Shown: positions 1 through 16,086 of the stretch, in pieces
Numbering within the stretch: position 1 is the first letter of the stretch
How the letters are laid out: each line of letters opens with the position of its first letter
From: a virus
Taxonomy: Duplodnaviria > Caudoviricetes
Length of the DNA stretch: 34,540 bases
Strand: one strand, 5' to 3'
IMG/VR virus record: IMGVR_UViG_3300033067_001012
Coordinates: 1 to 34,540 of that record
Notes under the pieces: model-generated
Seen by the model: only the letters and a program-made list of their open reading frames with translations
What the model was told of the DNA's origin: nothing
Database searches by the model: none
Program-made: the position numbers and the translations under genes

Positions 1-108
1 GTTCTCGAGGTTGCTCCTGAGGTTGCTCCTGAGGTTGCTCCCGAGGTTGCTCCAGAGGTTGTTCTCGAGGTTGCTCCAGAGGTTGCTCCTGAGGTTGCTC
101 CTGAGGTT
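1..108. repeat. 12-bp tandem repeat (GAGGTTGCTCCN-type) encoding NLx[S/N] tetrapeptides on the minus strand
   Basis: Directly visible; the array continues at 34463-34540. Confidence 0.95.
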
Positions 109-357
109 GGCCTTTTCACCCATAATCTTTTCGAAGTCTTTCGACTTCATAATGTTGCAGGCCAACTGGCACTGGATCGGAGATGGAAAGAAAAAATAAT
201 GCTTCGGCGCTTCCATGCCGGCGCATTCATAAATCTGCGCAATGGCCTTCTTTGCCTTGGTCTTGTTTACCTTCCCGGTTTTGCGTCCGTTATCCAGCCA
301 CTTTTTTAAGTAAACCGGCACCTTCTTTTCTTGTGCTTTCGTCATTTTTTCTATCAT
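1..357 (-). CDS. 5' part of DUF6745-like protein (continues across the origin into 34480..33824; about 337 aa in total)
   Basis: ATG at 357 overlaps the stop of 354..908 (ATGA). Reads MIEKMTKAQEKKVPVYLKKWL...IYECAGMEAPK...SPIQC, then the NLRS repeats. 119 codons, in frame with 34480..33824. Missed by the ORF track. Confidence 0.85.
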   Translation of the reverse strand, partial: MIEKMTKAQEKKVPVYLKKWLDNGRKTGKVNKTKAKKAIAQIYECAGMEAPKHYFFFPSPIQCQLACNIMKSKDFEKIMGEKANLRSNLRSNLWSNLENNLWSNLGSNLRSNLRSNLEN

Positions 358-908
358 TTTACTGCTCCTATTTTTTCCGGGACGTGCCCGATTTGTTCGA
401 AAGTTGTTTTGATGATTGATGAAACATTGTTTGATGGTGCTGGGAGTGACGGGACATGATCGAGCTCTCCACGCAGTGCTTGTTTGTGCGTGGTAGAGGC
501 GAGTCCTCGAAGCTGAGCTCTAATGGTGCCCATGTTGTCGGAGTTCGTGTTCTCGCAAAGGATGCCCCATCCGCCGAACTTACAAACAACTTCCCAGGCT
601 AAGTCGCCCATGCGTTTTTTAGCTCGGTCGGGATTGGTGTATCCATCCATCGAGATGGACTTCATGATGAGGTTTGCGACCATGACTGCGTTGTCGTCTT
701 GGCTGATCTCCGGGAGAACTTTGGAGCGGATCTCTGATGGGAATGGAAATCCTTTTTCTGTTTTGAGCCAATTTTGTAGAATAGTCATAACTGAAGAATC
801 ATCAAGATCAGAAAGGGCCGTCATGTAGGCATTAAGGGCGAGCTCGTTTAGGTCTTTTCCGACTACAAGAGCGATACCCAATAATTGCTTTTTAATTTCT
901 TGTTTCAC
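354..908 (-). CDS. Replication-associated protein (G39P/helicase-loader-like N-terminus, DUF6475-like C-terminus)
   Basis: FPFPSEIR and FGGWGILC motifs; coupled directly downstream of the replication initiator. Confidence 0.65.
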   Translation of the reverse strand: MKQEIKKQLLGIALVVGKDLNELALNAYMTALSDLDDSSVMTILQNWLKTEKGFPFPSEIRSKVLPEISQDDNAVMVANLIMKSISMDGYTNPDRAKKRMGDLAWEVVCKFGGWGILCENTNSDNMGTIRAQLRGLASTTHKQALRGELDHVPSLPAPSNNVSSIIKTTFEQIGHVPEKIGAVK

Positions 909-1705
909 GCTTCCCCCTTTTGAACTTTTTGGAGTAAGTCCATGGTGGTTGAAACTTTCTCAACTTGGCGAACTTGGGCGCCGGTCACAGCTTGTCCGCG
1001 TTCCCACTGAGTGCAATAACCCTCGGCGTTTTGAAGGAATGCTCCGACGGGGTGTTGATTCTTTAAAAGCCATCCGTCGTTGTTGGTGAGATAAAATGCA
1101 ATAGCAGGGACAGCATCTTTGCCAATACGGTTTCCAACTTGTTTGCACTGTGAAAAAACCTTGGCGTTGTGCTTTGGATCAACTCCGTATCTTTTTTTGA
1201 AAGCGGCTTTATAAGATTCCCAAACCTCACTGCCGAGAGTCTTGGATGCTTTTGGTTGCGTGGTGACAACCGCGCTAATGTCTGTCTGTTCTGTTATGTC
1301 TGTCTGTCTGTCTGTAGTGAGGAGTAAAGACGCGGCATCTTGTTCTTGACTGCGTAAGTTGGTGTCGGAATGACGGCGCGATGACGGCGCGATGACGTCA
1401 AGTGCTGTAAGTGTTTGAATTGTTTTAGTTAAATACTCTTTGTTGACCCCAAGGTCGGAGCAAACACGCTGTTCGGCGATTAACACCGTGCCAGAACCAG
1501 ACTTACTTGCTTCGCAGAATAGGAAAATTAAGGTCAGCTTCTGAATCGGCTCAAGAATGTAGATTTTTGGATCGGAAAAGAAGTTATTTAGGAACTTGAA
1601 CCATGAATGGTTAGCTCGATCATTGCGTGGGTTGTATTTATCCCAGTTGTTTATTCTGATTTCACAAAGGCCGTCTACCACGTTCATTCCCATCGAACGC
1701 ACCAA
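905..1705 (-). CDS. Phage replication initiator (lambda O/DnaD-like); start may be ATG 1693 or 1687
   Basis: INNWDKYN..R...SWFK N-terminus, central low-complexity linker carrying DNA repeats, helical C-terminal domain. Confidence 0.7.
   Translation of the reverse strand: MVRSMGMNVVDGLCEIRINNWDKYNPRNDRANHSWFKFLNNFFSDPKIYILEPIQKLTLIFLFCEASKSGSGTVLIAEQRVCSDLGVNKEYLTKTIQTLTALDVIAPSSRRHSDTNLRSQEQDAASLLLTTDRQTDITEQTDISAVVTTQPKASKTLGSEVWESYKAAFKKRYGVDPKHNAKVFSQCKQVGNRIGKDAVPAIAFYLTNNDGWLLKNQHPVGAFLQNAEGYCTQWERGQAVTGAQVRQVEKVSTTMDLLQKVQKGEA
1278..1397. repeat. Probable replication origin inside the initiator gene
   Basis: ATGACGGCGCG tandem repeats (1370-1380, 1381-1391, partial 1392-1397) and GTCT repeats (ATGTCTGTCTGT at 1278 and 1296). 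Confidence 0.6.
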
Positions 1706-1799
1706 CCCGGCCTTACGTCTTTCGACTTGGGGCCGGATCGAGTTCCATCTGTGAAAATGAAAGTTGTTTAAATTCTACTAGTTAGTACGTTAGAAGAAA

Positions 1800-1858
<59 letters not shown>

Positions 1859-1953
1859 AGGACTAACGCCAGTGGTCTTTCACAGATGTTGCGTTTCCTT
1901 TAAACGGATTTAACTTAGCCACAACCTCTTTTCAAGAACTATTTTCAATCAAT

Positions 1954-2904
1954 TTAATTTTTTCCCACGTTGCGGATATCAAGAGACTTTGTGACCCCTC
2001 GTAGCGTTTCAAGCTGGGCCTGGAGATACACCCTTTCAAGGGTTCTAATTGATGTCCCGCCGACAGCGCCAGCTCTTGCTGGACTCACTTCTTTTTCATA
2101 AACAGCGGTACTATAGGCCGTATGTCTTATGTCTTGCCATCTTGCTTGCCCCTCAATCTTTGCTATGCTTTTTATAATCGCCCACTGAGACTTTACGTCG
2201 GTTACTGGGCCATCTCCGCGCACGCTTTTAAACAAATGCTCCTCGCCCGTTTCCTTCATCTCTAAAAGTCTTTCAGTAAGTAGTTCATGGGCGTAGTCGC
2301 TCATAGGAATATCCCTTCCAATGCCTGTTTTTGAGCCTGTTTTAACGTTTTCTGGAAGTAGTCTTACAAATCTTTGTTCTAGAAAAATTCGATCTGGTTT
2401 AAGTTCCAACATTTCTGTTTTTCTTAGAATCATCTCATAAGATAGAACGAACATGAGCCTCATTTGCTTGTCGTTCATCACTGCGGCCCAAATTCTAATT
2501 AGCTCCGCGTCGGTGTATATTCTTCCAGTCCGCCCCCTTGGGGGATCTGTCTTTGGGAATAAGCAACCTCCGCGCAGATGCCCACGGCTACGTGCATAGT
2601 TGAATATTATATTAATAAACTTTGTGTAGTCGTCGAATGTTTTTCTTTTCGGCTTTCTCGTCTTAAAGTCGTTGATCCATTTTAGATAGGTCTCTCTGTC
2701 GAACTGGTATAATCTAAAGTGACCGATCTCCCGATCAAGCTCCCCAAGGAATCTTTCGTGCTGGTCTTGAGTCCTTACTCTCTTTTGTTTGGTTTCAGTT
2801 TCGAGAATTTTTTCAATGATGTCAGAGATTGTATAAATCCTGAACATTCGGGCGATCGCCCACACAAGCCATTTGATGAAAGCGGCAAGTTCTCCAAACT
2901 TCAC
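1954..2904 (-). CDS. int: Tyrosine recombinase/integrase
   Basis: LRKTE (R), KTG (K), WQDIRHT (HxxR-like), GGTS...RVY (Y); SAM-like core-binding region; adjacent to the tRNA fragment. Confidence 0.9.
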   Translation of the reverse strand: MKFGELAAFIKWLVWAIARMFRIYTISDIIEKILETETKQKRVRTQDQHERFLGELDREIGHFRLYQFDRETYLKWINDFKTRKPKRKTFDDYTKFINIIFNYARSRGHLRGGCLFPKTDPPRGRTGRIYTDAELIRIWAAVMNDKQMRLMFVLSYEMILRKTEMLELKPDRIFLEQRFVRLLPENVKTGSKTGIGRDIPMSDYAHELLTERLLEMKETGEEHLFKSVRGDGPVTDVKSQWAIIKSIAKIEGQARWQDIRHTAYSTAVYEKEVSPARAGAVGGTSIRTLERVYLQAQLETLRGVTKSLDIRNVGKN

Positions 2905-3083
2905 AGCAACACCTCAAGTTAACTACAAAGTTACTAAGCACTCAGCGGGGCATTATTCCCCATAGAATAACTCAAAATCTTTAAATACAACGGGGTTTAT
3001 GCATATTCTTCAAAAACACCGTCAAGAAATTATCAAATCTTTATTCAATGTTTGTGCAATATCAAGATGAGGTCAAAAATTAA

Positions 3084-3155
3084 AATGCGAGGCCGGGCAT
3101 TCCTAGAGGATAAGAGTAAGAGCCCTTGGCATCACTAGAGCGCGGCACTCGCATT
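3084..3155 (-). terminator. Long hairpin followed by a U-rich tract; terminator or attenuator between the recombination operon and int
   Basis: AATGCGAG/CTCGCATT and GCCG/CGGC stems; the minus strand continues TTAATTTTT. Confidence 0.45.
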
Positions 3156-3211
3156 CTCCACTCCACCCTCACGCTACTGGCATAAATCCAGGCGCTTGGG
3201 CGAAGGGGAAA

Positions 3212-3415
3212 TTAATTCTTTTTGTCCTCAACTTCCCAAAGTTCAAGCTCTTCTTTGACAAACCACTTCTGAAGTCCTTTGTCATTTAAGATCGGCTGAC
3301 CGTCTTTTAAGGCCTGGTTCATCGTTACTTTTACACCGTTAATGTAACCGTAAAAAAAGCCGTACTGTTCGTTATAAACAATTTCGCCAATAGTTCTATT
3401 AAATTTACGTTTCAT
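3212..3415 (-). CDS. Small hypothetical protein (possibly SSB-like)
   Basis: ATGA-coupled to the ERF gene; beta-rich with aromatic residues and an acidic tail. Confidence 0.6.
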   Translation of the reverse strand: MKRKFNRTIGEIVYNEQYGFFYGYINGVKVTMNQALKDGQPILNDKGLQKWFVKEELELWEVEDKKN

Positions 3416-3933
3416 TGTCTCGCTCCAAATGTGCGCGGCCCAAATGATTGTCGTGGTGCCGCTTTTTGTGTTTCTTGTTTTTGACCTGTATCTATTTCTT
3501 CATTTGTTGCTTCAGGGTCTTCAACATCTTTTGTTGGGATAGAAAAAAGCTCGATAAATGCGTACTTCATAGCGCCACTCATTGCTTTGTTGCTCGCCTT
3601 ATCGCTTGTATCAATACCCTCCCCGCATGTAGTTACTTCAACAAATGAGCCGTCTTCGGCGTAAAACTTGTGACAAACAGTGAGTAAAACCCTAAAACTT
3701 GTTTTCTTTTCACCTTGTTTATTGACTCCCTCGTAGCTTTCCATGGTTCGATCGACCACTTGAGGCGCGCAGAACACCTTGTTTTTTACGAGGATTGGGT
3801 GAATGGCGTTGTACATGTCCTCAATTCCACGAAACTTATATCCACCTGCCGCCGCCGGAGCGTCGCGACCCTTGTGAACGCTTCCAAGCTCACTCATTAT
3901 TTTTGGTATCATTTCAAAAATCTTGCTACTCAT
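3412..3933 (-). CDS. erf: ERF-family single-strand annealing protein
   Basis: YKFRGIEDMYNA...GEGIDTSDKASNKAMSGAMKYAF...FSIPT..D.D/E signature. Confidence 0.85.
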   Translation of the reverse strand: MSSKIFEMIPKIMSELGSVHKGRDAPAAAGGYKFRGIEDMYNAIHPILVKNKVFCAPQVVDRTMESYEGVNKQGEKKTSFRVLLTVCHKFYAEDGSFVEVTTCGEGIDTSDKASNKAMSGAMKYAFIELFSIPTKDVEDPEATNEEIDTGQKQETQKAAPRQSFGPRTFGARQ

Positions 3934-4772
3934 ACAGACTCCTCAACAGCCCACTTAGGCAGGGTTAAATTAACAATTTCAGGTTTAAACTTTGGGGGAC
4001 ATTCGGTCATTTGTTGAACTTCAAGCGCATTCTCGTAGGCCGACAAGTACCGCTTTTTAGTGAAGTCACTAAACACGATGTCTGTCATATCGTATAGGGC
4101 GACTTCAGCTGTTTCTGACTCAATGACGATTGCATAAACAGTCGTGGCCTTGCTTGCGAGCGCGTAATGAAGCATCTGAATGTCGTACCGAAGCGCCAAA
4201 AGCTGGCTTGTGAACTCTCTCGCACTCCCATCACGGGTGGTCTTAATGTCGATCACCACGCGAGCGTCCATGTTAACAAGGTCAAGGCGCGCTTTATTGC
4301 CATCCCATACGATTGTTTTCTCTTTCTCAAACTCTCTTAAAGCGTCCTTTACTGCTGGTATGTCCATGCACTTTCGCTTAACCATTTCGACCTTATAGAG
4401 GTCGTCTGGACTAATAACAATCCTGCCTTGATTCTTTTCGTCAAACGCCTTCCACCACTCAATCACGCGGATTGATTTTTGATTCGCCTCAACTTGTGCC
4501 TTTGTCGGTTTCTCAAGTGTGGCGAACTTTGCAAATGCCTCGTCTTGAGGTTTTGTTAATTTCTTTGGCGCGTCCATTGGGATGGTCACGTAACGCTCGT
4601 TAAACGTGTCCGGCTCTAAAAGAGCACAGTGAACCATGGTTCCGAACTCCATTGCGTCTGATTCATAAGCAGGCCCATTTAAGTACTTCCAGCCTTGATA
4701 AGCGCCAAATGAACATGCCTTTAAAAAGCTTGCCCTAATAGCCTTAACTTCACTGTATTCTTGTTCTGTCAT
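3930..4772 (-). CDS. RecE/exonuclease VIII-like PD-(D/E)XK nuclease (DUF3799-like)
   Basis: AMEFGTMVHCALLEP, KARLD...IDIKTT, YDIQM.HY motifs. Confidence 0.85.
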   Translation of the reverse strand: MTEQEYSEVKAIRASFLKACSFGAYQGWKYLNGPAYESDAMEFGTMVHCALLEPDTFNERYVTIPMDAPKKLTKPQDEAFAKFATLEKPTKAQVEANQKSIRVIEWWKAFDEKNQGRIVISPDDLYKVEMVKRKCMDIPAVKDALREFEKEKTIVWDGNKARLDLVNMDARVVIDIKTTRDGSAREFTSQLLALRYDIQMLHYALASKATTVYAIVIESETAEVALYDMTDIVFSDFTKKRYLSAYENALEVQQMTECPPKFKPEIVNLTLPKWAVEESV

Positions 4773-4975
4773 TTTCCTACTCCTTCATATTTAATTTTAA
4801 GAACCTGAAATATTTTAAATGCCTCTGTTACGCGTGGATCGATCTTGCCAGCCTCAATCTTACTAATGTAGCTCTGGGATACTTTTACAAGCTTTGCGAG
4901 TGTGGCTTGATTCATTCCCATGGCCTCGCGGTGTTTTTTGATGGTGTCTGCGAGGCCTTTCTTGTCCGAGCTCAT
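4769..4975 (-). CDS. XRE/Cro-like helix-turn-helix regulator
   Basis: IKKHRE.MGMNQ..LA..V.VSQSYISKIEAGK. Start re-placed to ATG 4975 (GGAGG RBS, ATGA overlap). Confidence 0.85.
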   Translation of the reverse strand: MSSDKKGLADTIKKHREAMGMNQATLAKLVKVSQSYISKIEAGKIDPRVTEAFKIFQVLKIKYEGVGK

Positions 4976-5061
4976 GTCTTCCTCCACTCGATAAAATATT
5001 CTTCCCATGTGATCCACCCAAGCTTTAAGGCTCGGATTAAATTGAATTGCTGTGCTGTCAT
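4972..5061 (-). CDS. 29-aa peptide MTAQQFNLIRALKLGWITWEEYFIEWRKT (SHOCT-like motif)
   Basis: ATGA-coupled at both ends, with GGAG upstream; below the ORF-track length cutoff. Confidence 0.6.
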   Translation of the reverse strand: MTAQQFNLIRALKLGWITWEEYFIEWRKT

Positions 5062-6314
5062 AAAAAGAACTCCTTTATAAACTGTTCAAATGTTCCGCTG
5101 TAGCTTCCAAGCTTCATAAACCCGAAAGTCTCTTGATCACCTACAAGGTAGACAAAAAGCACCTGTCCATTCACTTCAACGAAATCTAAATCAGAATTAT
5201 TCAAACCCTCATCTGTGCGTCCGAAGTTGTTTAAGACTTCACGAGGTGACTCTTCAAAGGTCACTAGATCTCGCGACCTAGCCACGACCGTGTAATAGCG
5301 AGAGTGATCCACAACCGACATACGGTCTGTCATTGTAAATAGGTAGTACCAACCGTTTAAGTACCTAATTGTAGGGCACGCATTCTCAATGCTTGTGCTG
5401 TAAGTTCCGCCGAATGATGACCAATTTATAAGGTCATTAGAGAATAAGAACTTGGGGAAAAACCGCGAGTAATTGCCCGTTTCTCTGATCTCGTATGCCA
5501 TGACGTAACCTGTGTCAGTCTTAGTGACCGATGAGTTATAAATGATTTGGTTACTTGGTGCTGTAAAGATCACAGTAGGCGCTGACCAGTGGATAAGATC
5601 TGTAGACGTTGCGGTCACTACCCGATTACCTGGCCCATCCATAGTGTTACTTGATGCAAACACATGAACGACATTGTTCTCTACATAAGCGCACCCAAAG
5701 TTATAAGCGAACGGCGTCTGACTAAAGGTCGAGAAGTCAGGATAGTTTTGGACTTTTATGAATCCATTACCAGTATCGTTATTCGCAAAGCTGATTAGAT
5801 AAACTTTTCCATTAAAATCAATCGGTGTCATCTCACCCACTGCGCCCATGACTTGGTTAAGTTTGTGGATCGGGCCTGGGTTTGGCTGTTCACTATTCTC
5901 TGTGATTGAGTAATTTTGTGCACACGATGAAAGCGCTAGTGCTAAACAAACCGCAACTGCGCCGGGCATGATACTAGGGCCGATTTTTTCGAGCTTGTAT
6001 CCGTGCTTAGCTGCAATCTCTTCTACTAAGGTGTCGTTCCAAAAAAACCAGTGATCAACAGCGTCCGAGTCTTCTAAGGAAATGCCGTCTTCTCGGATTT
6101 CACTTTCTAACTCATCCGCTACATCACGCATGTTTAAAAGGTCATGAGCGGCCTTTGACCATGATCCGTAATCCGCTGCGTCGTCTTGATCGTTATGGCG
6201 GGTTAAGCGGTAAACATACTCGACATTAGATGTATCAGTTGCGGTCAATTTCTCGCCGTTAACATCTAAACTAATTGTATTTACTGCGTTTTTCATCTTT
6301 AATGCTTGGCTCAT
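5058..6314 (-). CDS. Fusion: acidic N-terminal domain + internal lipoprotein signal + five-bladed beta-propeller glycoside hydrolase-like domain
   Basis: Lipobox LALSS-C131; repeated S.DL..W blade motifs; ACPTIRYLNGWYYLF and NNSDLDF.E motifs. Confidence 0.65.
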   Translation of the reverse strand: MSQALKMKNAVNTISLDVNGEKLTATDTSNVEYVYRLTRHNDQDDAADYGSWSKAAHDLLNMRDVADELESEIREDGISLEDSDAVDHWFFWNDTLVEEIAAKHGYKLEKIGPSIMPGAVAVCLALALSSCAQNYSITENSEQPNPGPIHKLNQVMGAVGEMTPIDFNGKVYLISFANNDTGNGFIKVQNYPDFSTFSQTPFAYNFGCAYVENNVVHVFASSNTMDGPGNRVVTATSTDLIHWSAPTVIFTAPSNQIIYNSSVTKTDTGYVMAYEIRETGNYSRFFPKFLFSNDLINWSSFGGTYSTSIENACPTIRYLNGWYYLFTMTDRMSVVDHSRYYTVVARSRDLVTFEESPREVLNNFGRTDEGLNNSDLDFVEVNGQVLFVYLVGDQETFGFMKLGSYSGTFEQFIKEFFL

Positions 6315-6334
6315 AATGACGCCCTTTCATAATT

Positions 6335-6363
6335 ATAATATATGCAAAAAACATATTAATCAA
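6335..6363 (-). promoter_or_regulatory. Leftward early sigma70-type promoter
   Basis: TTGATT-17-TATTAT on the minus strand, upstream of 6314. Confidence 0.5.
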
Positions 6364-6377
6364 TATAAAAATACATA

Positions 6378-6406
6378 TTGTCAAAATATATACACTCGTA
6401 TATAAT
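6378..6406 (+). promoter_or_regulatory. Rightward sigma70-type promoter overlapped by an operator-like palindrome
   Basis: TTGTCA-17-TATAAT; inverted repeat TATATAC-ACTC-GTATATA at 6387-6404. Confidence 0.75.
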
Positions 6407-6431
6407 AGTATATGTGCCGTATAAGGAAGGC

Positions 6432-6635
6432 ATGGGTAAAATGGACAAAATCGTTTTGGAAGTGCTACAGGAGTTAAGGGATGAGGAAGACGCTAAGGGC
6501 GAAAAGAAAGCCTATTATGCCAACTTCCCGGGAAAGCTATACGAGGATTTCGAGAAGGCCATTGCGCCAGTAGCGCCGACCAAGTTCTTTCAGAGAGTCA
6601 TGGCTAAGGTCGTGCAGCTTTCAAAGAAAAAGTAA
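6432..6635 (+). CDS. Ribbon-helix-helix-like regulator (candidate repressor)
   Basis: AAGGAAGG RBS before ATG 6432; KKAYYANFP strand followed by two helices; divergent from the early operon. Confidence 0.55.
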   Translation: MGKMDKIVLEVLQELRDEEDAKGEKKAYYANFPGKLYEDFEKAIAPVAPTKFFQRVMAKVVQLSKKK

Positions 6636-6687
6636 ACAAAGTTTAGATAGTTTTGAGTAAGTTGAGTATTACTCAAGGAATATTATC

Positions 6688-6716
6688 TTGATAATTATAC
6701 ACAGTTATTATATAAT
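6688..6716 (+). promoter_or_regulatory. Strong sigma70-type promoter of the moron
   Basis: TTGATA-17-TATAAT, followed by an AGGAG RBS at 6726-6730. Confidence 0.75.
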
Positions 6717-6736
6717 TAACTAAACAGGAGCTTAAT

Positions 6737-6976
6737 ATGAATATTATTTTTACGGTTGTTATTTTCTTTTCTTGTAGTGCCTTTGCTCAAATCGATACGA
6801 GCATTTATAAAAATGTAGGCAATTACAATCAACCCGTACAGCCGTATCAAATGCAAGTACAACCGGTCGCACCAGTTCAAGTGCCACAAATCAAGCAAAC
6901 CGATTATACTTGTCTCAATAGATGTACCCAGTCTGGGTTGATGTACGGATTTTGCCAGTCAAAATGCTCTTATTAG
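6737..6976 (+). CDS. Secreted small moron protein with P/Q linker and 4-Cys C-terminal domain
   Basis: Sec signal ending AFA|Q; C-x3-C-x9-C-x3-C; own promoter and RBS. Confidence 0.8.
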   Translation: MNIIFTVVIFFSCSAFAQIDTSIYKNVGNYNQPVQPYQMQVQPVAPVQVPQIKQTDYTCLNRCTQSGLMYGFCQSKCSY

Positions 6977-8013
6977 GTGTTGAAGACCATACCATTGAAA
7001 CTTAGGCGTCCACCGAAGATGCGCGGTAAGTAGAAAGAGTAAGTACCATCAGGGAAAAACTCGAATACACCAAACGCGTGAACCCAGTTTGTTGGCTTGC
7101 CTTTCATAAATGGCGCATCTAATCTGCACAAGCATCCAAGTGATACCGCTTCAATGAATCCGTTAATCGATGGCTGATGCGTGCTTAGAATGTCATGCAA
7201 GTGTCCGTAATAGATATTGCCCTTAATCACGTCTAGGTGTTTCTTTGCGTGATTTGATCCAACATAAAGGCCATGAGTGAAGTACGCCTTACCTACTTTT
7301 AAAAGCTCATTTAGCTCAATCAAGTCGTAACCAAACTCATCAAGGTTAAGAAGTTTCTTAATGCTGAGCTCGATTCCGAGTTCGTCTAGCCCATCAAACA
7401 GCTCTGGAAGCTTTGCAACCATTGCTTGACGCAGCCAGTCTTCATGATTGCCGCTTAAGTACAGCCTTGTTTTGCAATCCGGTGTCCGTAGCACAATCTC
7501 TTTTAAAAGTTGTCTCGCTTCGATCACTTCAGGCACTAATCTTTTTGGATCCATTGAATCACTAGGCCAATGCGAGATCCCTTCGGCATCAAGGAAATCA
7601 CCCAAGATAATATGCGCGTGTGGCTTGTACCAGAATAAGAAATCTAAAAAGATTCTGACTGCGTTGTGATCTCTGTTTTTTACGTGTGTATCGGGTTGAA
7701 CCACAACTTTTAAGCTTGAAGGATTGCCAGCACGAGCAAACATGTCGGCAAGGTCAATTTCGTTAATCTTAAAGCTTTCAACTACTGTGCGCTTATATTT
7801 GAATTTTTGGGCCTTATGTTCTTTTGCGAGCTCTGTGCCCAATATCCCAGCGGCTTTGAGTGCGTCGTTAAACGTGGGCCAGACTCTCATGACGTCATCA
7901 ATGGAGTGATCACCGTAAACAGTATAATCGTGCTTATTCGGCAGCGATCCTTTTAGTTCGGCCACGCGCTTTAAATCCATAAGAAGTGCGTGCATTTTTA
8001 CTGGGTCGGCCAT
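6973..8013 (-). CDS. Calcineurin-like metallophosphoesterase with an N-terminal homing-endonuclease-associated-repeat-like domain
   Basis: DTH, GDFLD, GNHE, THG and GHLH motifs; N-terminal LKRVA..G..P...Y...G......FNDALKAAG. Confidence 0.8.
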   Translation of the reverse strand: MADPVKMHALLMDLKRVAELKGSLPNKHDYTVYGDHSIDDVMRVWPTFNDALKAAGILGTELAKEHKAQKFKYKRTVVESFKINEIDLADMFARAGNPSSLKVVVQPDTHVKNRDHNAVRIFLDFLFWYKPHAHIILGDFLDAEGISHWPSDSMDPKRLVPEVIEARQLLKEIVLRTPDCKTRLYLSGNHEDWLRQAMVAKLPELFDGLDELGIELSIKKLLNLDEFGYDLIELNELLKVGKAYFTHGLYVGSNHAKKHLDVIKGNIYYGHLHDILSTHQPSINGFIEAVSLGCLCRLDAPFMKGKPTNWVHAFGVFEFFPDGTYSFYLPRIFGGRLSFNGMVFNT

Positions 8014-8032
8014 CCAAAGCCCTCCAATTTAA

Positions 8033-8425
8033 CTACTCAACGGTCAATAAAAACTCATCAATCCCATCTAGTGACTTCATAAAACTATTGAAAGCAACGC
8101 GGCTGCTCATCACCATCTTGCCGCCGTTTAATTTGTTCCCGATTTGAGTCCCAAGTAAAACGCATCCATCTGATTCATCGTTGTAATTACCGACGTGAAT
8201 TAGAATGTTGTCGTGGTCTGGGACGCCAGTAATTTCAAAGACCTCATATCCAAGGTGAGGAGAAAATCGTCTAACGCACTTGTATTCACCGGGTGGAACC
8301 TTTGCGGCGTATCCATCACCGAATGGGTAAGAATGCTCAAGCGTAACCGCAAGCAAATCACGGCGGTCATTTAGTAGCTCCCCGAATATGCCGTCTTCTC
8401 TAAATTCTTTTCGGGTTAGCTTCAT
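8033..8425 (-). CDS. DUF5675-family protein, candidate endolysin
   Basis: TLE...VPPGEY...ILIHVGN...SDGCVLLG (His/Cys, L,D-transpeptidase-like); located in the lysis cassette. Confidence 0.75.
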   Translation of the reverse strand: MKLTRKEFREDGIFGELLNDRRDLLAVTLEHSYPFGDGYAAKVPPGEYKCVRRFSPHLGYEVFEITGVPDHDNILIHVGNYNDESDGCVLLGTQIGNKLNGGKMVMSSRVAFNSFMKSLDGIDEFLLTVE

Positions 8426-8713
8426 TTATTGACTCACCCTAAGCTTAAATCCCATGTTGATGAGTTTTGCTAAAGTTGCTGGGTCATTTAAATCATAGTA
8501 CTCGCGCTTTTGCTCCCACCTACGGCACCACAGAAATCTGTCTGCACATTCTCGCCACGTGTAATAAAACTGCCCAGGCTTGTCAGGGCTTAGGAGCAGG
8601 GTTCGCTCCTGTAACGGAATAAGCGAAGGAGTCGGCAAGGTCGCGCAACTCACGCTCGATCCGATCGAGAGCAAGCTGGCTCCGGTAATTATCAGGCTGA
8701 TCCATTTCTTCAT
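8426..8713 (-). CDS. Outer-membrane lipoprotein, o-spanin (Rz1-like)
   Basis: Start ATG 8713 with AAGGA RBS; MKKWISLIITGASLLSIGSSVS-C lipobox; Pro-rich after the Cys; begins inside 8583..8819 in another frame. Confidence 0.65.
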   Translation of the reverse strand: MKKWISLIITGASLLSIGSSVSCATLPTPSLIPLQERTLLLSPDKPGQFYYTWRECADRFLWCRRWEQKREYYDLNDPATLAKLINMGFKLRVSQ

Positions 8714-8819
8714 GGTAGTCCTTTTTAAGTTCCAGGTATTTGTCCTGATACTTTGTTTTAATCTCGTCTGAGGCGATCGACAGTGCCGCCCCGAGTACTT
8801 TAAAAATTGATTCAATCAT
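8583..8819 (-). CDS. i-spanin candidate (Rz-like)
   Basis: Hydrophobic N-terminus plus coiled coil; GAGG RBS; overlaps the lipoprotein gene. Confidence 0.55.
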   Translation of the reverse strand: MIESIFKVLGAALSIASDEIKTKYQDKYLELKKDYHEEMDQPDNYRSQLALDRIERELRDLADSFAYSVTGANPAPKP

Positions 8820-8894
8820 TTTTCCTCACGCGTCGATCGGGGCGAGGTTGAAAGGTTAAGACCTCTAACCCCGATCGAATACCCATCCGTTGGG

Positions 8895-9404
8895 TTAAGC
8901 CGACATTGGAGCGTTGATCTCTTTGATTAGAGAAATAATAGAAACGCCCACCTTTAATGATTTAGAAATAATTGCTGCGGCATGCTCGTTTGCAATGCCC
9001 TTCCCGATAACGAATGCCACAAGCTGGGCGGCTTCTGATTCATCAAGATCCGCAAGTTCTGGAATGGCTTGTCCAGCGTCCTCATAAGCAGCCAATGCCT
9101 TCGGATATAGAGGCATGATCAAACCAAGTGATTCAAAATGAAATTTTCCGTCTTTAAGTAGCTCTTTTTCAAATGAAAGCGCACTGAATCCAAAGTCCAA
9201 AATTTCCATCACGTTTTTAATATCTTTTTTTTCTGACATTTCTTTCTCTCCTAGTTTTTTTGCTAGAGCATTTTCAGCCCTAGATTGTTTAAATTTGAGA
9301 TAGGTGTTTATTGCCATAGGGAGGCCCTTTACAACCGTCCATATAAACCCCAAACACTTAGCCCAAAAATTTGTATTTTCTTTGTTGAAGTAGTCATCTG
9401 CCAT
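8895..9404 (-). CDS. Lysis-region helical protein; second likely start at ATG 9239 (114 aa)
   Basis: RBS-like sequences before both 9404 (GGAGAAGG) and 9239 (AGGAG); KDGK...ELADLD..E motif. Confidence 0.6.
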   Translation of the reverse strand: MADDYFNKENTNFWAKCLGFIWTVVKGLPMAINTYLKFKQSRAENALAKKLGEKEMSEKKDIKNVMEILDFGFSALSFEKELLKDGKFHFESLGLIMPLYPKALAAYEDAGQAIPELADLDESEAAQLVAFVIGKGIANEHAAAIISKSLKVGVSIISLIKEINAPMSA

Positions 9405-9567
9405 TCACCTTCTCCATGATCTGGTACTGCATCTGCTCAATTCGATCTAGACGTGGAACCACCTCTCTGTATGTTGCAAAGAACATGTGAACATATCCCA
9501 AAACAGCGAAGGCACTCCCGACGAGCCACATTAGAATCTCGACAGTGCTCACGCCGCGCTTATTCAT
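9394..9567 (-). CDS. 57-aa single-TM protein (holin candidate) with a prepilin-type N-terminus
   Basis: ATGA overlap with the tail-fibre stop; GGAG RBS; MNKRGVSTVEILMWLVGSAFAVLGYVHMFFATYREVVPRLDRIEQMQYQIMEKVNGR. Not in the ORF track. Confidence 0.75.
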   Translation of the reverse strand: MNKRGVSTVEILMWLVGSAFAVLGYVHMFFATYREVVPRLDRIEQMQYQIMEKVNGR

Positions 9568-10655
9568 TTCCTAACTCCATAAAGTCTGAATGTCCCTGCA
9601 GAGATGTTTCCTGATGACATTAAGAACCGAACCGCGTTGATGGTGTTAGTAGATCCGAAGTAAACAGACCCACCATCTACCGTAACAAGAGAAGGAACTT
9701 GACCGTGCATTACCACGTTCCACTTCATGAGCTTGTATTTGCTGCTAGTTGGAGTGAAAAGCCTGATATCACCTTGAAAGACCTCGCCAGTACTATTTCC
9801 AAGTCCGCCAATTACAACTATCTTTGTGTCTGATCCACTTGAACCAGTTGCACTTGGAGCAGCAGCGCCAGCGCTATAAACAAAGTTGTACGCGTAACTT
9901 GATGTAGAAACATAAGACGACCCTGCGTTCTCTGAAAACCTAATCCAAAGATCCGTGTTATCGGTAGCCGGTACAAGCCCGGTGATGACAAACAAATATT
10001 CGTCGTAAGTTCCATCAATACCAGTAGTGAAATCAATCTGTGCAGATGAGCTTGCAGTCTGAGCTGAAATTAATGTCATCCCAGAAACCGTGCTTAATAG
10101 TACCTTTTTGTTGGCTGATGCCGAAGCGTCAAAGGTTGGAACGTAATCCGCAGTACCGTCTGGAGCTGTATCTGCAGTTAATCCAGAAAACACAGTAGTT
10201 GCGAGCTTTGCCGTAGTAATCGCAGCATCCCTAATGTGGTCAGTGGTAACTGCTCGGTTTGCATCAACGCTTGGATCGTCGCGAAGCTTAGCTGCCGTTA
10301 CAGCATCATCTGCAATTTTTGCTGTAGTAACAGCCGAATCTTGAATCGACGCCGTCACCACAGAGTTGTTTGTTGCAAGACCCACAACCCCGTCCACCGT
10401 TCTAACCGTTGCTCCACCAGAGTCTTTGATTACAAACTTGTAAGACAAAGAAACATCTAGCCAAATGTTAGCCTCGCCATTTGCGTCGAGCACAATCGGG
10501 TTTGCGTTTGAAGTTACACCGGTTGAGTCAGTGTAAGTTAGTTGTGGCGTAGTTGTGCCTGACTGGTAAGTGTAAATGCTTCCACCTGCGAGTGGGTTAC
10601 CATTGGCATCGAAATATTGTGGTTTTAATACGGGAGCAAAGCTTACTGTAGCCAT
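9564..10655 (-). CDS. Tail fibre/spike with P22-type head-binding N-terminal domain
   Basis: FDANGNPLAGG.IYTY..GTTTP..TY.D...NPIVLDANG; AVT.AK repeats; C-terminal SGNISAGTFRLYG. Start at the TAATG overlap. Confidence 0.85.
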   Translation of the reverse strand: MATVSFAPVLKPQYFDANGNPLAGGSIYTYQSGTTTPQLTYTDSTGVTSNANPIVLDANGEANIWLDVSLSYKFVIKDSGGATVRTVDGVVGLATNNSVVTASIQDSAVTTAKIADDAVTAAKLRDDPSVDANRAVTTDHIRDAAITTAKLATTVFSGLTADTAPDGTADYVPTFDASASANKKVLLSTVSGMTLISAQTASSSAQIDFTTGIDGTYDEYLFVITGLVPATDNTDLWIRFSENAGSSYVSTSSYAYNFVYSAGAAAPSATGSSGSDTKIVVIGGLGNSTGEVFQGDIRLFTPTSSKYKLMKWNVVMHGQVPSLVTVDGGSVYFGSTNTINAVRFLMSSGNISAGTFRLYGVRK

Positions 10656-12562
10656 TATTTCCACCGTCCTTGTGAAATTTCGTTTTTGATTTCTTGAAAT
10701 CGTTTTGAACCTGGCTTTAAATCGGAAGCCTCTCTGAGAAGTGTTCTTCCCTTTTCAGAGTTCATCAGAACGGCGGCGGTTGCTTTATCAACACCAAGCC
10801 TTTTAGCGCCTTCATTCGCCCACCTATCGAGGTTTGATTTTTTTTTGGTTTGAGCTGGGTTTCGATCTGTGATGTCCTCTGCCGCAACCTTCTGAATTGG
10901 TTCCGACAGGTCGGTTTTGCTCATTACTCCGATAGTATTTGCGAGCGCCGAAGGCGTTCTTTCTGTTGCTTCGAGGGCTGGCGCCGCCGTCCTTCCAAGC
11001 GACTCAAGACCGGCATCTCTAAGAAAGCTACCAGCTTTGTCTAGAGCTTTTGATACGAGAGGAGTTCCGTATTTTCTCATGCCCTTATTAGCCAAACCAA
11101 GCCCCGCACCAATAGCGGCATTTTTAATTTTATTTTCTATGCCATCACCGGTTGCGGCTCCAACCACCGCACCGCCGACGCTCGTCATGTAATCGCTTGG
11201 AGAAAAAAACCTATTCGCATTTTCACGTAAAACTCTGTCTGACGATATTCCTTCTAGCTGCGCAGCCATGCCGTATTTCTTATTTGCTTCTTTTAACCCC
11301 GCCAAAGCATCGCTTCCAAGAGCGTTATCAAGAGCCGATATTCTCGAATCTATCTTTTCGCTTAGCTTTCCGCGAAGTTTGGCAAGAAGCTGCTTTGCAA
11401 GCGGCTGATCTCTGAACTCTTTGTCGTAATTAATCAAGCTATCTACATCAACCTTTGCCTTTTGAAGCTGTAGGATGTTTGCATCGGGCCCAATCTCTTT
11501 GATGTCGGACAAAACCGACTGTACTTGCGGAAGCGCCTTTCTAAAACCAGCAGTTCCCTTGTATTCAGACTGAAGTGCGCTTTCAAACTCGTCTGCAAAC
11601 TGAACAGGATTGAAAGCAGATTTCTCAAGTGACTGTTTAATTTCTGGAGTAATTTTTTCTAAGAATTTTGGATTATTTACAGCGTCGTTTGCGGCCTTGT
11701 AGGTTTCGGCAATCTTTGCACCGGCTTCCTGCTTAATAGCGCCTGATTTTGCCGCGACCGTTTCAAAGCTTGATCCGGGTTCAACCATTCCGTTATCAAG
11801 CATGAATCGTCCGAGGTCGTTAATTTTGTCTTTAGACGCTGCATTCCTGTAGTCTTTCAGCATTGCTCCCGAAGACTTAAATGCCCGCTCTTCTGCCTTC
11901 GAATTTAGCTTCCCGGCGAGGTTTCCGACTCCTTTTGCGGCGGCAGACGCTCCCTCAATTAATCCCTGCCCGGCTGCTCCAATTGTGCCACCTACGGCGA
12001 GGTTTCTTAGGCGATCTTCACCCTGAAGAATGTTCACTTCACCCTCAGTGTCGCCTGGATTTGAAAGTGCGCCGATAATTGCTCCACCTTTAGCGGCTTG
12101 GGCAACTCGACCGAGCCTGGTTGCGGCATTAATAGGAGTTAATCCGCTTGCAGCTATACCTGATGCAAGTGAGCCGCCAATTGTTCCAACGGCGGACGCA
12201 ACGGGGTGATTTGATTCTTGGTCTTGTAGTCTCTTCGCATAGGCATCACGCTCTTGAGCGTATGTCTTTTCTTGTGGTGATACTGTAAATCCCTGTTCTT
12301 TTAGTTTTTTGTCTAGATCAGCATTTGGATCTGGCATGACTTTGCTAACAAACCCTTGAATTTGAGGCATGTACCCAAGGGCTGCCGCGTTTCCAAAGTG
12401 CTCTAATCCCGCTTGAGCTGCTTCGCCAATATCACCTTCTGAGCTTGCCGGTTTTTCTTTTTGTGAGTTTTCGGCTTTCCACTTTTGCTTAGCTTGCTCG
12501 ACTAATTGATCTCGTTGCCACTTTTGCTTAGCTTGTGCAACAAGCTCTTCTCTCGTGGCCAT
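10655..12562 (-). CDS. Large DNA ejection (internal virion) protein
   Basis: Ala/Gly-rich helical protein, third in the ejection cluster, just before the tail fibre. Confidence 0.7.
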   Translation of the reverse strand: MATREELVAQAKQKWQRDQLVEQAKQKWKAENSQKEKPASSEGDIGEAAQAGLEHFGNAAALGYMPQIQGFVSKVMPDPNADLDKKLKEQGFTVSPQEKTYAQERDAYAKRLQDQESNHPVASAVGTIGGSLASGIAASGLTPINAATRLGRVAQAAKGGAIIGALSNPGDTEGEVNILQGEDRLRNLAVGGTIGAAGQGLIEGASAAAKGVGNLAGKLNSKAEERAFKSSGAMLKDYRNAASKDKINDLGRFMLDNGMVEPGSSFETVAAKSGAIKQEAGAKIAETYKAANDAVNNPKFLEKITPEIKQSLEKSAFNPVQFADEFESALQSEYKGTAGFRKALPQVQSVLSDIKEIGPDANILQLQKAKVDVDSLINYDKEFRDQPLAKQLLAKLRGKLSEKIDSRISALDNALGSDALAGLKEANKKYGMAAQLEGISSDRVLRENANRFFSPSDYMTSVGGAVVGAATGDGIENKIKNAAIGAGLGLANKGMRKYGTPLVSKALDKAGSFLRDAGLESLGRTAAPALEATERTPSALANTIGVMSKTDLSEPIQKVAAEDITDRNPAQTKKKSNLDRWANEGAKRLGVDKATAAVLMNSEKGRTLLREASDLKPGSKRFQEIKNEISQGRWK

Positions 12563-13533
12563 TAGTTGCCCCCGATGTATTTTGTTAATTCTGCTTCGCT
12601 CATATTGTGGAAGTCAGGCATTGCAGAGTCGGCCGACGCATCTTTAATTATGGAGCCGGTCTTATTTCCCTTTTTATCCCATTTCAAATAAGCAAACGAA
12701 CCCTCTCCCTGAGGGTCAAATCCAAGAGTTTTGTATCGACTGCGCATGATCTGTTTTAATTCATCGAGCTTTTGTCTCTGCATTTTTGGGTTATCAAGAG
12801 CAGATCTAGCAAGCGCTCTAAATCGCTCGCCTTCATCTTTGTTAATCGCCCCGCCCGATTGCATGCGGCCTACCGCTTCCTCAAATCTGCTTAATGCTGC
12901 GGTGTAATTGTTATCACCAAATGGGCTGTATCGGGGTACGTTTGAATTTAGCGCCGAACCCATCTCATTAATTGCATCGTTTGCCATGACGACATTGTCA
13001 TACCGCTGCTTGTCCGAAGAATTTAGGCTTGCAAGCTTTGACTCTTTTGTCGGCGGCAGCAAATCTCCAAGCTTGCTTTTTGCTTCCGCATTTAGCTTTG
13101 CAATTTCTGCCCTTGTTTTACTGCGCGCCAACTCCCGATCCATTGGATCATTTTTAGCGCTTGTTAATTCATACTGTGCTTTTTTAATTGCCAAGTATTC
13201 AGGAGTATTGTTTAGCTGGTGCCCGATCATTGCTGCTGTTTCTGGTGAATACGGCATTGCTTCATTCGGAGCCAGATGCCCGCTATCGACTAGTTTTTTT
13301 AACCCCTGGTTCCACGCGCCTTCTCGCTTGTCTTCGGGTAGGCTCATCACAGAGTCGTATGTTGACCCAATTTCCATTAATTTCTTTTTTTGATCCGAAT
13401 CCTTCATCTGTTTTGCTTCCTGGGCATTTCTGAGCCCAATCGACGAAAGTCTTGCAGCATTTGTTTGAACGTCTATCGGATCGTTTTGATCAAAAAGCTT
13501 TATGTTGTTGTAAATGCTTGTGTCGATAGACAT
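12562..13533 (-). CDS. DNA ejection protein (P22 gp20-like position)
   Basis: Helical, QSGGAI...E motif, second in the ejection cluster. Confidence 0.7.
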   Translation of the reverse strand: MSIDTSIYNNIKLFDQNDPIDVQTNAARLSSIGLRNAQEAKQMKDSDQKKKLMEIGSTYDSVMSLPEDKREGAWNQGLKKLVDSGHLAPNEAMPYSPETAAMIGHQLNNTPEYLAIKKAQYELTSAKNDPMDRELARSKTRAEIAKLNAEAKSKLGDLLPPTKESKLASLNSSDKQRYDNVVMANDAINEMGSALNSNVPRYSPFGDNNYTAALSRFEEAVGRMQSGGAINKDEGERFRALARSALDNPKMQRQKLDELKQIMRSRYKTLGFDPQGEGSFAYLKWDKKGNKTGSIIKDASADSAMPDFHNMSEAELTKYIGGN

Positions 13534-14519
13534 TAGCTAACCCCCCAAAATGATGATGGTGACTGTCCGTAGTTGTATCCAGACACAGACCCAACCGGGC
13601 TGTTAGTGCCCAGCCCGCTTAAGTTTTGTTGCATCCAGTTTTTTTGGTCAGCCATAGCGGCCGTGCTCATACCAATGTTTCCTAGGTTTTTAATTGTATT
13701 CCCCCAAGCATTTGCACCAGCAATCTGTGCAGCACCTTGAGCGTTCGCAGCCCCCATCATGTTCTGACCAACTTGGTTTGCGTAGTTCTGCCCAGCTTGT
13801 CCGATCTGCGCGTTTGCGTTCTGACCAAATCCGGAAATTGAGGACAATCGATTGAACCTATTTGTCTGATCGTTGTTGAAACGGTTGTAAGCATTACCGT
13901 ATTCGTTTGATGCGTAGTCTTGACCGTACTTAGCAAGTTCCTTTGCAAAGTTTCCAGACATTAAGCCACCCGACGCAGCAGCAGAGCGCTCTAATGCTTT
14001 TTGACCTTCCTGCATGCGGAAGTCATAGCCAGGATCTTTTTGGAAATCGGCCATTGTGAAGTTACGAGTGAGCTCTGGATCGATCTCATAATTTTCAGCG
14101 TTATTGTGGATGAGACCCTTATCAAGAGAGTCTTGTCGTCCGTTTGCATTCCAGTCGGCTAAAACGCGAGCTCTGATTTGATCATCGCTCTCACCGCCAC
14201 CGGCTTCATTTCTTGCTTGCTGTGCATTTGTTACATAGGTATCAATCCAGCTGTTTTTGATTTGGTCTTCGTTTGTAGATGGGCCGCTTGCTCCATTTGC
14301 TCTGCGGAAAATACCGCCATTTCCATACAGAGCTTGAACACCAGCCTGACGCCAAGGATTTTGGTCAGTGCGCTGCTGATTATACATTTGCATTTGAAGC
14401 TGGCTTGCGCGATCAGCTGCGGCAGATTGCGTCTCTGCTGCGCTCTTTGCTCCTTTTCCGCCCAAAAACCCACTACCAATAGCGCCGACACCGGCAGCAA
14501 TTCCTCCACCTAAAGGCAT
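13533..14519 (-). CDS. DNA transfer/ejection protein (P22 gp7-like)
   Basis: Gly/Ala-rich N-terminus, PWRQAG..AL, DPGY.FR..EGQKALERSAAA.GGL.SG motif. Confidence 0.8.
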   Translation of the reverse strand: MPLGGGIAAGVGAIGSGFLGGKGAKSAAETQSAAADRASQLQMQMYNQQRTDQNPWRQAGVQALYGNGGIFRRANGASGPSTNEDQIKNSWIDTYVTNAQQARNEAGGGESDDQIRARVLADWNANGRQDSLDKGLIHNNAENYEIDPELTRNFTMADFQKDPGYDFRMQEGQKALERSAAASGGLMSGNFAKELAKYGQDYASNEYGNAYNRFNNDQTNRFNRLSSISGFGQNANAQIGQAGQNYANQVGQNMMGAANAQGAAQIAGANAWGNTIKNLGNIGMSTAAMADQKNWMQQNLSGLGTNSPVGSVSGYNYGQSPSSFWGVS

Positions 14520-15289
14520 ACTGATCTCCTCCTCAAATGAGATACATTCTCGTCAGTTTGTTCAAATCCGCGCCTTTTAAACCGTTCCGAGAGTCCAGGA
14601 AGGTTTGTCGCGCAGCTCACCATTGCAAATCCTCTTGCTAGTGCTGAAAACGAAAGGCCTTCAATCAAACAATCAAGAGCGGAGTTTCTATCCGCGCCGA
14701 GTGAATCGGGGTCAGACGATAAATTTCCGATCATCGCTAGATTTGCGTCTGTTAAGAATAAGAACCCTGCCGCAACCGGAATCCCGTTTTTGCATGCGAC
14801 GATGCCTAGCTGTGGTAAAAATGCGGGATCAGGATGCGGAAAGTTGCGCTTAATGAACCATGATTTAATCAGCTCAAAATGAAGATCGAAATTAAACGGC
14901 ACAAGATCAATGCTGGTATCGACGTTTGGAAGTTTTAATTTTGGCTGTTTTACTGGTTTTGAAACCTGAATTATTCCGCCGTTTGCCGATGAGATTTTAA
15001 ATCCAGCCGAGAGGCATGCAATAGTAACAATCGACGAACACGAATCCTCTAGATATATTGATCCCGTGATTCGCTCACATTTTGCCTTCTCTGCAGCGTC
15101 TTCTAGCTTTTTTAAAAGAATTCTACCGTGTCCAGATTTTCTAGACTCTGGTTTAACGTAGAACTCGATAACGTAGCAAACAGGCCCATCGTCTCGATAA
15201 GCAACAAAACCGTGCTCATCTTGAATGATCTTTCCACGCGATCTTTCCGAAATGTATTTGCCGTAGTGAGATTCTGATAAGTTAATCAT
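14510..15289 (-). CDS. Tandem GNAT-fold virion assembly protein
   Basis: N-domain FYVKPESRKSGHG (acetyl-CoA motif A); C-domain PVAAGFLFLTD...F..RGF. Confidence 0.7.
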   Translation of the reverse strand: MINLSESHYGKYISERSRGKIIQDEHGFVAYRDDGPVCYVIEFYVKPESRKSGHGRILLKKLEDAAEKAKCERITGSIYLEDSCSSIVTIACLSAGFKISSANGGIIQVSKPVKQPKLKLPNVDTSIDLVPFNFDLHFELIKSWFIKRNFPHPDPAFLPQLGIVACKNGIPVAAGFLFLTDANLAMIGNLSSDPDSLGADRNSALDCLIEGLSFSALARGFAMVSCATNLPGLSERFKRRGFEQTDENVSHLRRRSVCL

Positions 15290-16086
15290 ACGGTACGCTC
15301 CGTAATCCTGAGCGATGAGAGGTTGATGCCACCGAGAAGTCGCGATCCGCCGGATCCGTTAAATGTCACTGTTGCTGCTGACCCTGCACCGGCGCGGACT
15401 TTGAAAGTTGTGGCACTTGTAGTCCCTGCCGCCATTTCATGCCTAAATGACAGTTTTACTATCCCGCCTGAAGTCTCTACAAACTGAGCGCACCCAGCGA
15501 CAGAGTTAGCTGTGGAATCTTGAAATAAAGCTGCGATCATCGTCACGTTTGCCGCGCTTGCAGATAGAAACAGCTCGGCATCGATTACAAGCCTATTTGT
15601 TGCAGATTGAGGGGTGATGCTAGCGGACAAGAACTCAGTGCCCTCAGTGTTCTGAGGGATTGTGTCGTCAATTGGGATTGTAGTTGTTCCCGTGGTTACT
15701 GCACCGCTTTGAGTAAACACGTCTTGAACAATTCGTGATGCTTTTGCGTCTGTTGCAAACTTCGCGAGCGTAATCCCAGCATCTTTTACGCGCAAGGTGT
15801 CTGAGTTAATTTCAACCGTGCTGTTATCTGTATTTACTGCTAGCGGTGAACCGGCGCCACCAATTAACCCACCACCCGCAACAGACGCGGATACCTTCGC
15901 TTCGGTGACGGCTGCGTCTTCAATTCTTGATGTAGATACAGAATAGAGCTCACTGTTCGAGCTTGCGATGTTTCCACCTACTCGCTCAAAAAGACGAATA
16001 AACCAGTCAGCCCAAACGGGTGTGAGTACACCCATGTCATCGATCATTGGGGTCTTAACCAGTACTGATGGAAGCTTTGTAGACAT
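15286..16086 (-). CDS. Tail needle/plug-like protein with C-terminal knob
   Basis: P..D..G..T.VW..WF..L N-terminus; follows the gp10-like gene; beta-rich C-terminus (SITP.S..N). Confidence 0.6.
   Translation of the reverse strand: MSTKLPSVLVKTPMIDDMGVLTPVWADWFIRLFERVGGNIASSNSELYSVSTSRIEDAAVTEAKVSASVAGGGLIGGAGSPLAVNTDNSTVEINSDTLRVKDAGITLAKFATDAKASRIVQDVFTQSGAVTTGTTTIPIDDTIPQNTEGTEFLSASITPQSATNRLVIDAELFLSASAANVTMIAALFQDSTANSVAGCAQFVETSGGIVKLSFRHEMAAGTTSATTFKVRAGAGSAATVTFNGSGGSRLLGGINLSSLRITERTV

Follow-up and report, generated by a model that had tools for sequence, protein, structure and literature searches.

The moron and its setting

The window, by which we mean the whole stretch of DNA analysed here (34,540 nucleotides), is the entire 34.5-kb record of a P22-like podophage, with genes for a portal (PF16510), a coat (PF11651) and a gp10-like head closure protein (phrog_578). 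A tyrosine recombinase encoded on the minus strand at 1954..2904, an integrase matching phrog_1 as well as PF00589 (40.4 bits, over the cut-off), suggests a temperate lifestyle. The first and last 60 bases of the window are identical and lie within a short tandem repeat, and a 34.4-kb contig of run X1 spans window bases 80-15000 with zero differing letters; no attachment-site joint was found in the reads over positions 1-15000. Nearly all genes lie on the minus strand, the plus-strand exceptions being a regulator-like ORF at 6441-6635 and the gene under study, to which we refer as the moron. Among the minus-strand genes, the first early gene (5058-6314, 418 aa) gives a weak GH43/GH32 propeller signal; close to 5969 it has an internal Met, after which comes a lipobox-like LALALSSC, and a second gene, for a lipoprotein glycosidase that targets a receptor on the cell surface, may be concealed in it.

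The moron is an ORF of 79 aa at 6737-6976 on the plus strand, which begins with MNIIFTVVIFFSCSAFA and continues, after a cleavage site read from the sequence pattern, with QIDTSIYKNV. A Sec signal peptide of 17 aa ending in AFA (6737..6787) is predicted from that pattern and from the orthologues, which show MKK, a hydrophobic core and A-x-A; the orthologues do not share the Cys13 of the window protein, which argues against the moron being a lipoprotein. No hydrophobic stretch is predicted besides this N-terminal signal. The predicted mature N-terminus QIDTSIYKNVGNY (6788..6826), which resembles an ejection protein, is modelled as a disordered arm (pLDDT about 50) and is followed by a variable linker rich in Gln and Pro (6827..6895) and by a helical hairpin of the pattern TDYxCxxxCxxxGxxYxxCxxxCSY (6896..6976), which belongs to a widespread secreted family and has two predicted disulfides. 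In the structural model, helices at residues 40-48 and 53-60 reach a pLDDT of about 90, and the rest is the disordered arm. The earlier note had described the ejection-protein-like peptide as disulfide-capped, which has to be abandoned: the cysteines lie about 40 residues downstream, in the separate hairpin. No match to the moron was found in PHROG, Pfam or PADLOC, and NCBIfam gave one irrelevant match far under the cut-off; searches for homologues by word index, in the ESM Atlas, by tblastn of GenBank phages and for loci related to the one moron returned nothing usable.

As had been proposed from the sequence, the gene has its own near-consensus promoter, of the sigma-70 type (6688..6716 on the plus strand, TTGATA-17-TATAAT, 11/12 consensus positions), and its -35 and -10 boxes are kept in two other loci that carry the gene (L018 and L116), with a spacer that varies. 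Downstream, the moron overlaps by 4 bases the end of a convergent gene for a metallophosphoesterase with an N-terminal HNH-associated repeat (6973-8013, minus strand), and no intrinsic terminator was found between the two. In L018, a second plus-strand gene, lipoprotein-like, lies 3' of the moron (4463-4678), and unrelated genes for signal-peptide proteins or lipoproteins also occur in four further records (G008, G010, G016 and G025).

The regulator-like ORF at 6441..6635, also on the plus strand and preceded by its own promoter (6378-6406), encodes a small protein resembling ribbon-helix-helix regulators. It had been taken as a candidate repressor co-oriented with the moron; the orientation stands and the identity is only plausible, the window protein having no family match and its equivalent in L018 matching CopG/RHH (ribbon-helix-helix) models under the cut-off. 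The cassette of RHH-like ORF, promoter and moron, opposite in orientation to the flanking genes, was found in 3/3 loci with available DNA, which represent three phages. This is the arrangement expected of a gene expressed from the prophage, and expression in the lysogen is a plausible reading of it. A relative with two hairpins follows directly after a cI-like gene on the same strand in each of two further records (G064 and G068), both times lacking the motif.

The motif shared with the gp20-position ejection protein

The ejection genes of the window lie on the minus strand and follow the order gp7, tunnel protein and large protein known from P22-like podophages. The gp7-like protein (13533..14519), which we regard as the putative docking partner discussed below, matches phrog_598 'DNA ejection' with an E-value of 1.6e-42 and contains some 65 inserted residues that three relatives lack; two side observations concern the adjoining region, where the gene before gp7 (14510-15289, minus strand) encodes two domains with a GNAT acetyltransferase in the first half, and a tail-region protein (15286-16086, minus strand) reaches 23.9 bits for a Pgp3 C-terminal domain with a cut-off of 25. 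The large ejection protein in the gp16 position, ej3 (10655..12562), is assigned by gene order. The middle gene of the triplet, ej2 (12562..13533), which occupies the gp20 position immediately after gp7, encodes a protein beginning with MSIDTSIYNNI, and it probably is an ejection protein by gene order and by the match of 6/46 positional homologues to phrog_2534 ('released from the phage upon host infection'), a model that the ej2 of the window itself does not match. Structure prediction makes ej2 all-helical, a helix of 45 residues coming after an arm (residues 1-18) of low confidence. A fold search with this model gave no significant match in the PDB and only uncharacterised phage proteins in BFVD, and no sequence relatives of the gp7 or moron alignments were found in the PDB.

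The ej2 N-terminus was described from 84 loci, namely the window, the best 80 of 574 viral loci with a gp7 gene and three others; 78 of the 84 have a readable next gene after gp7, with the N-terminal motif anchored in 64 of these 78. No other feature of the gp20-position proteins is as well conserved as this motif. MxIDxSI is nearly the sole N-terminal feature conserved in a majority of the 46 ej2 proteins that were aligned, whose mean column identity is 18%; the gp7-like core is also strongly conserved. The motif exists in two subtypes, DPSIAL-like in most and a Y type (DTSIY-like) in 11 of the 46 distinct motifs. Since the second residue is Pro, Ala, Ser or Thr in 61/64 ej2 proteins, removal of the initiator Met is expected from what is established about methionine aminopeptidase; it would leave X-I-D at the free end in 52/64, which is the register of Q-I-D in the mature moron. 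Two further N-termini are of note. In one record (G079, L267:7243-8598, minus strand), which also carries a hairpin gene, ej2 starts with MQPIDYTV, similar to the hairpin start IDYTC; a general link between hairpin and ej2 received no support from profile comparison. A viral protein of 298 aa (L271:1312-2208, plus strand, and L276) starts with MATKDTTIYDNRGN, which resembles the extended moron motif.

The resemblance between QIDTSIYKNV and MSIDTSIYNNI on which the earlier note was built is confirmed, with 7/9 identical residues counted from the Ile, and so is the observation on the codons, 4/7 of the shared ones differing at the third position only and 3/7 being identical. Across the motif, 21/27 nucleotides are identical between the two genes. 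Searching the six-frame translation of the window with the 9-mer of ej2 returned ej2 itself, the moron (7/9) and otherwise nothing above 5, and among ORFs of up to 330 aa none matches the N-terminus of the phage's own ej2 better than the moron does, both in the window and in a second phage that carries both genes (L018, record G006). Scored with a profile of eight ej2 N-terminal residues, the moron motif reaches 17.2 bits, compared to 16.1 bits for the best of 201,626 background windows, which were taken from other long ORFs, not from linkers; with the two cognate motifs left out of the profile the score is 16.3 bits, the background being the one computed for the full profile.

Four clusters of moron orthologues are available (the window, L018/P0199, P0048 from locus L116, and P0200), and all four read AQ[IL]DT[ST]IYxN[VS]GNY. 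Pairwise identity among the four is 86% in the motif (67/78), 69% in the hairpin and 49% in the linker, which bears out the claim that the motif is conserved, and synonymous changes are found within the motif. The match goes far beyond chance and the motif is under selection.

The claim that the moron copies the protein of its own phage specifically was not supported: both morons that could be compared match Y-type N-termini of other phages as well as their own or better. The moron of the window agrees with the ej2 of two other loci (L035 and L087) at 8/10 positions and with its own at 7/10, and for the moron of L018 the best match is the ej2 of the window, while its own ej2 falls outside the top 7 of 43. 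Because neither moron best matches its own ej2, we conclude that the moron follows the Y-type consensus. The ej2 of the L018 phage also belongs to the Y subtype, and the pairs of moron and ej2 examined for co-variation are two, both of this subtype and from related phages, whose gp7 proteins are 64% identical.

The distribution of the gene also counts against the earlier reading. A gene combining signal peptide and motif occurs in one (G006) of 22 related records, six of them partly fetched and several incomplete, and in 1/10 with a Y-type ej2. Scanning for the DPSIAL-type pattern gave 23 loci, namely 21 with ej2 genes, one with an unrelated protein and one without a qualifying ORF, and hence no morons; a pattern scan of metagenomes gave five loci, one real (L116, on a contig that ends before the ejection genes) and four unrelated, and two more viral pattern scans returned L018 again and nothing else. 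No gp7 was found in five genomes with hairpin genes, of unknown completeness and including one with an MNPNIILQ variant; for the six proteins with linker variants no partner among ejection genes could be assigned, no gp7 having been found in the single genome available. A small ORF copying the N-terminus of its own ej3 or the C-terminus of its own ej2 was sought in 20 records, with no convincing case.

The cysteine-hairpin family

The C-terminal 27 residues of the moron define a family with 172 matches among 1.84 billion representatives; 150 of the 172 were listed, and 148 were kept after dropping two as unrelated. These members consist of one to three units of [TI]DYxCxxxCxxxGxxYxxCxxxC, mostly after a signal peptide. 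Both phage contigs and the genomes of many groups encode them; neither Pfam nor PHROG nor NCBIfam has a model for the family, and a gp7-like gene is present in 6/26 hairpin-bearing viral records. Helical-hairpin peptides with a CX3C/CX3C arrangement are called alpha-hairpinins, and likeness is seen to Ole e 6 and crambin, in which two short helices are likewise stapled by CX3C pairs (rmsd 0.8 A over 21 residues). The comparison of the moron model with the two proteins stays under significance (E-values of 3.6 and 8.6), VIA-align returned nothing at Z of at least 2, and hairpin relatives reach 14-23 bits on the Pfam models Ole_e_6 and Defensin with cut-offs of 27-28, the window moron matching neither; the family differs by its own [TI]DY...G..Y...CSY signature.

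Most members of the family lack the motif. Outside the repeats, 7/148 nevertheless score at least 10 bits on the ej2 profile, with shuffled sequences giving a mean of 0.25 and a maximum of 3 in 300 shuffles. Leaving out P0048, which had been found through the motif, 6/147 reach at least 10 bits as opposed to 0.53 expected from a background of real proteins, drawn from long ORFs and not from linkers (P about 2e-5); with a profile of 12 residues, 2/148 do so. The variants cover both ej2 subtypes and are weaker than the motif of the moron, and by profile the motif or a variant of it is seen in seven lineages of the family; on the moron side the subtypes read DTSIY, DPTIY, DPNIA, NPNII and DSSII.

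Several members deserve mention for themselves. In P0046 and P0105 the Cys hairpin is fused behind a lipoprotein domain, and P0105 matches BamE under the cut-off. Genes for single hairpins without a linker lie near packaging genes and in the same orientation in eight loci (L008, L014, L022, L024, L029, L171, L179 and L186), which makes this a second genomic setting of the family. One 44.8-kb contig (G057) carries two near-identical double-hairpin genes (L003 and L006), possibly an assembly duplication. We also considered the hairpin itself as a mimic, either of the N-terminal helical hairpins of ej3 or of the ej2 N-terminus, and rejected this with hhalign probabilities of 0.65, 0.05 and 0.15%.

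A possible periplasmic decoy, its rivals and known exclusion systems

From the match, its conservation, its place in the ej2 family motif, the hairpin, the promoter and the gene context we infer, giving this reading an even chance, that the moron may act in the periplasm as a decoy, filling the site where the N-terminal arm of the tunnel protein docks and blocking the entry of DNA from related phages. The protein would be expressed from the prophage and exported to the periplasm of the lysogen, where signal cleavage would leave Q-I-D free, in the same register as X-I-D of ej2 after Met removal. By analogy with gp72/gp73 of phage DEV and gp15/gp14 of T7, the N-terminal arm of the tunnel protein would dock on the gp7-like outer-membrane pore; a copy of the motif already present in the periplasm would fill the docking site, so that the conduit would never be built, and the hairpin would serve as a stable carrier of the peptide. 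Any phage with a Y-type motif would be a target, beyond the phage's own kind. When the mature moron was modelled in complex with a trimer of gp7-like protein residues 20-300, the result (score 0.07, mark 0.32; controls unfolded) carried no weight either way.

We prefer competition for the gp7-like pore to the other readings because the tunnel N-termini of DEV and T7 contact the pore. The same decoy logic could also apply to a host envelope protein needed by the ejection protein, the moron then filling a site on the host. Such a partner would agree with a moron that follows the consensus of its subtype more closely than its own ej2, as if there were one conserved external pocket, and with a motif that persists across ej2 proteins of so low a mean identity (18%); the conserved gp7-like core explains the same pattern, however, and the DEV and T7 precedent places the tunnel N-terminus on a phage pore, so that we hold a host target to be unlikely. 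Rather unlikely, in our view, is also a motif without any relation to ejection, either the decayed remnant of a first hairpin (Q-[TIV]-D-[YF]-x-C) or a generic helix cap, with convergent likeness to ej2 and an envelope role borne by the hairpin. The moron motif does align with the point at which relatives with two hairpins enter hairpin 1, their first repeat opening there with Q[ITV]D, the majority of the family does without the motif, and the linker of P0052 weakly resembles the GYQY of the repeat (4.1 bits). On the repeat HMM, however, the moron N-terminus scores -4.9 bits, the motif is more conserved than the hairpin, and the match to ej2 extends over 8/10 residues; a generic motif is already covered by the background of real proteins.

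A role in the lytically infected cell, for instance one in which it senses or antagonises incoming ejection proteins in the periplasm and thereby adjusts the timing of lysis, appears improbable to us. The moron adjoins genes of the lysis region, its single-hairpin relatives are oriented with packaging genes in other phages, and no attachment-site joint was found over positions 1-15000, all of which would suit such a role, but its own strong sigma-70 promoter on the strand opposite to the late operon and the placement behind a regulator or cI in several phages speak against it. Very improbable, finally, is a piece of the ej2 5' end captured by recombination and carried along without function. 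The nucleotide identity between the two window genes (21/27) and the AGY serine codon, present in both of them and in 7/10 Y-type ej2 motifs, favour capture; third positions have diverged while the residues were kept, though, and the motif is the best-conserved part of the protein. Capture may thus explain the origin of the moron motif, not its maintenance, and neutral capture is largely refuted by the conservation profile.

Extending the decoy reading beyond the window, we suggest tentatively, and with less than even confidence, that temperate podophages use exported decoys copying ejection docking peptides and that the hairpin family has repeatedly acquired a gp20-position peptide. If true, ejectosome assembly would be the target of a modular class of dominant-negative inhibitors acting in the periplasm, with the N-terminal ten residues of the tunnel protein as the docking element. 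The assembly of P22-type channels is poorly resolved and the molecular basis of the SieA-type block is unknown; a natural decoy of ten residues would reveal which element docks and provide a peptide probe for ejectosome assembly.

Among known systems, SieA of phage P22 comes closest, being likewise a prophage gene of a P22-like podophage and acting at the step proposed for the moron: it interferes with the conduit of gp20 and gp16 and thereby keeps DNA from entering, and its escape mutations map close to residues 338-350 of gp20 and within gp16, away from the N-terminus, which counts against the decoy reading (PMC10883804). In the accessible part of that paper, mimicry of an ejection peptide, as proposed here, is not seen for SieA (PMC10883804). 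SieA also is an inner-membrane protein, whereas the moron, with its disordered arm and hairpin, is predicted not to be one, and the idea that the two are homologues was rejected, no homology being found in PHROG, Pfam, PADLOC or NCBIfam. The interface proposed as mimicked, a tunnel N-terminal segment on a pore, has its counterparts in DEV, where the N-terminal helix of gp72 binds the outer-membrane pore protein gp73 (PMC11445570), and in T7, for which a review presents a model with gp14 stabilising the flexible N-terminus of gp15 (PMC8954989). No sequence or fold link was found between these proteins and those of the window, and the analogy is drawn from the order of the genes and the roles predicted for them. 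No paper on a phage that exports a copy of a peptide from an ejection protein was found in a literature search that had most subscription journals and supplements outside its scope, and the accessible parts of two further papers have no bearing on such copies (PMC12366544, PMC11784390). The moron motif is a real, selected and unusual feature; the decoy function is a plausible reading, and the evidence from co-variation is thin. Exclusion at DNA entry is known from SieA, and an exported ejection-peptide decoy, which would be without precedent in the literature searched, would establish a form of exclusion in which a virus imitates the machine that it uses for entry.
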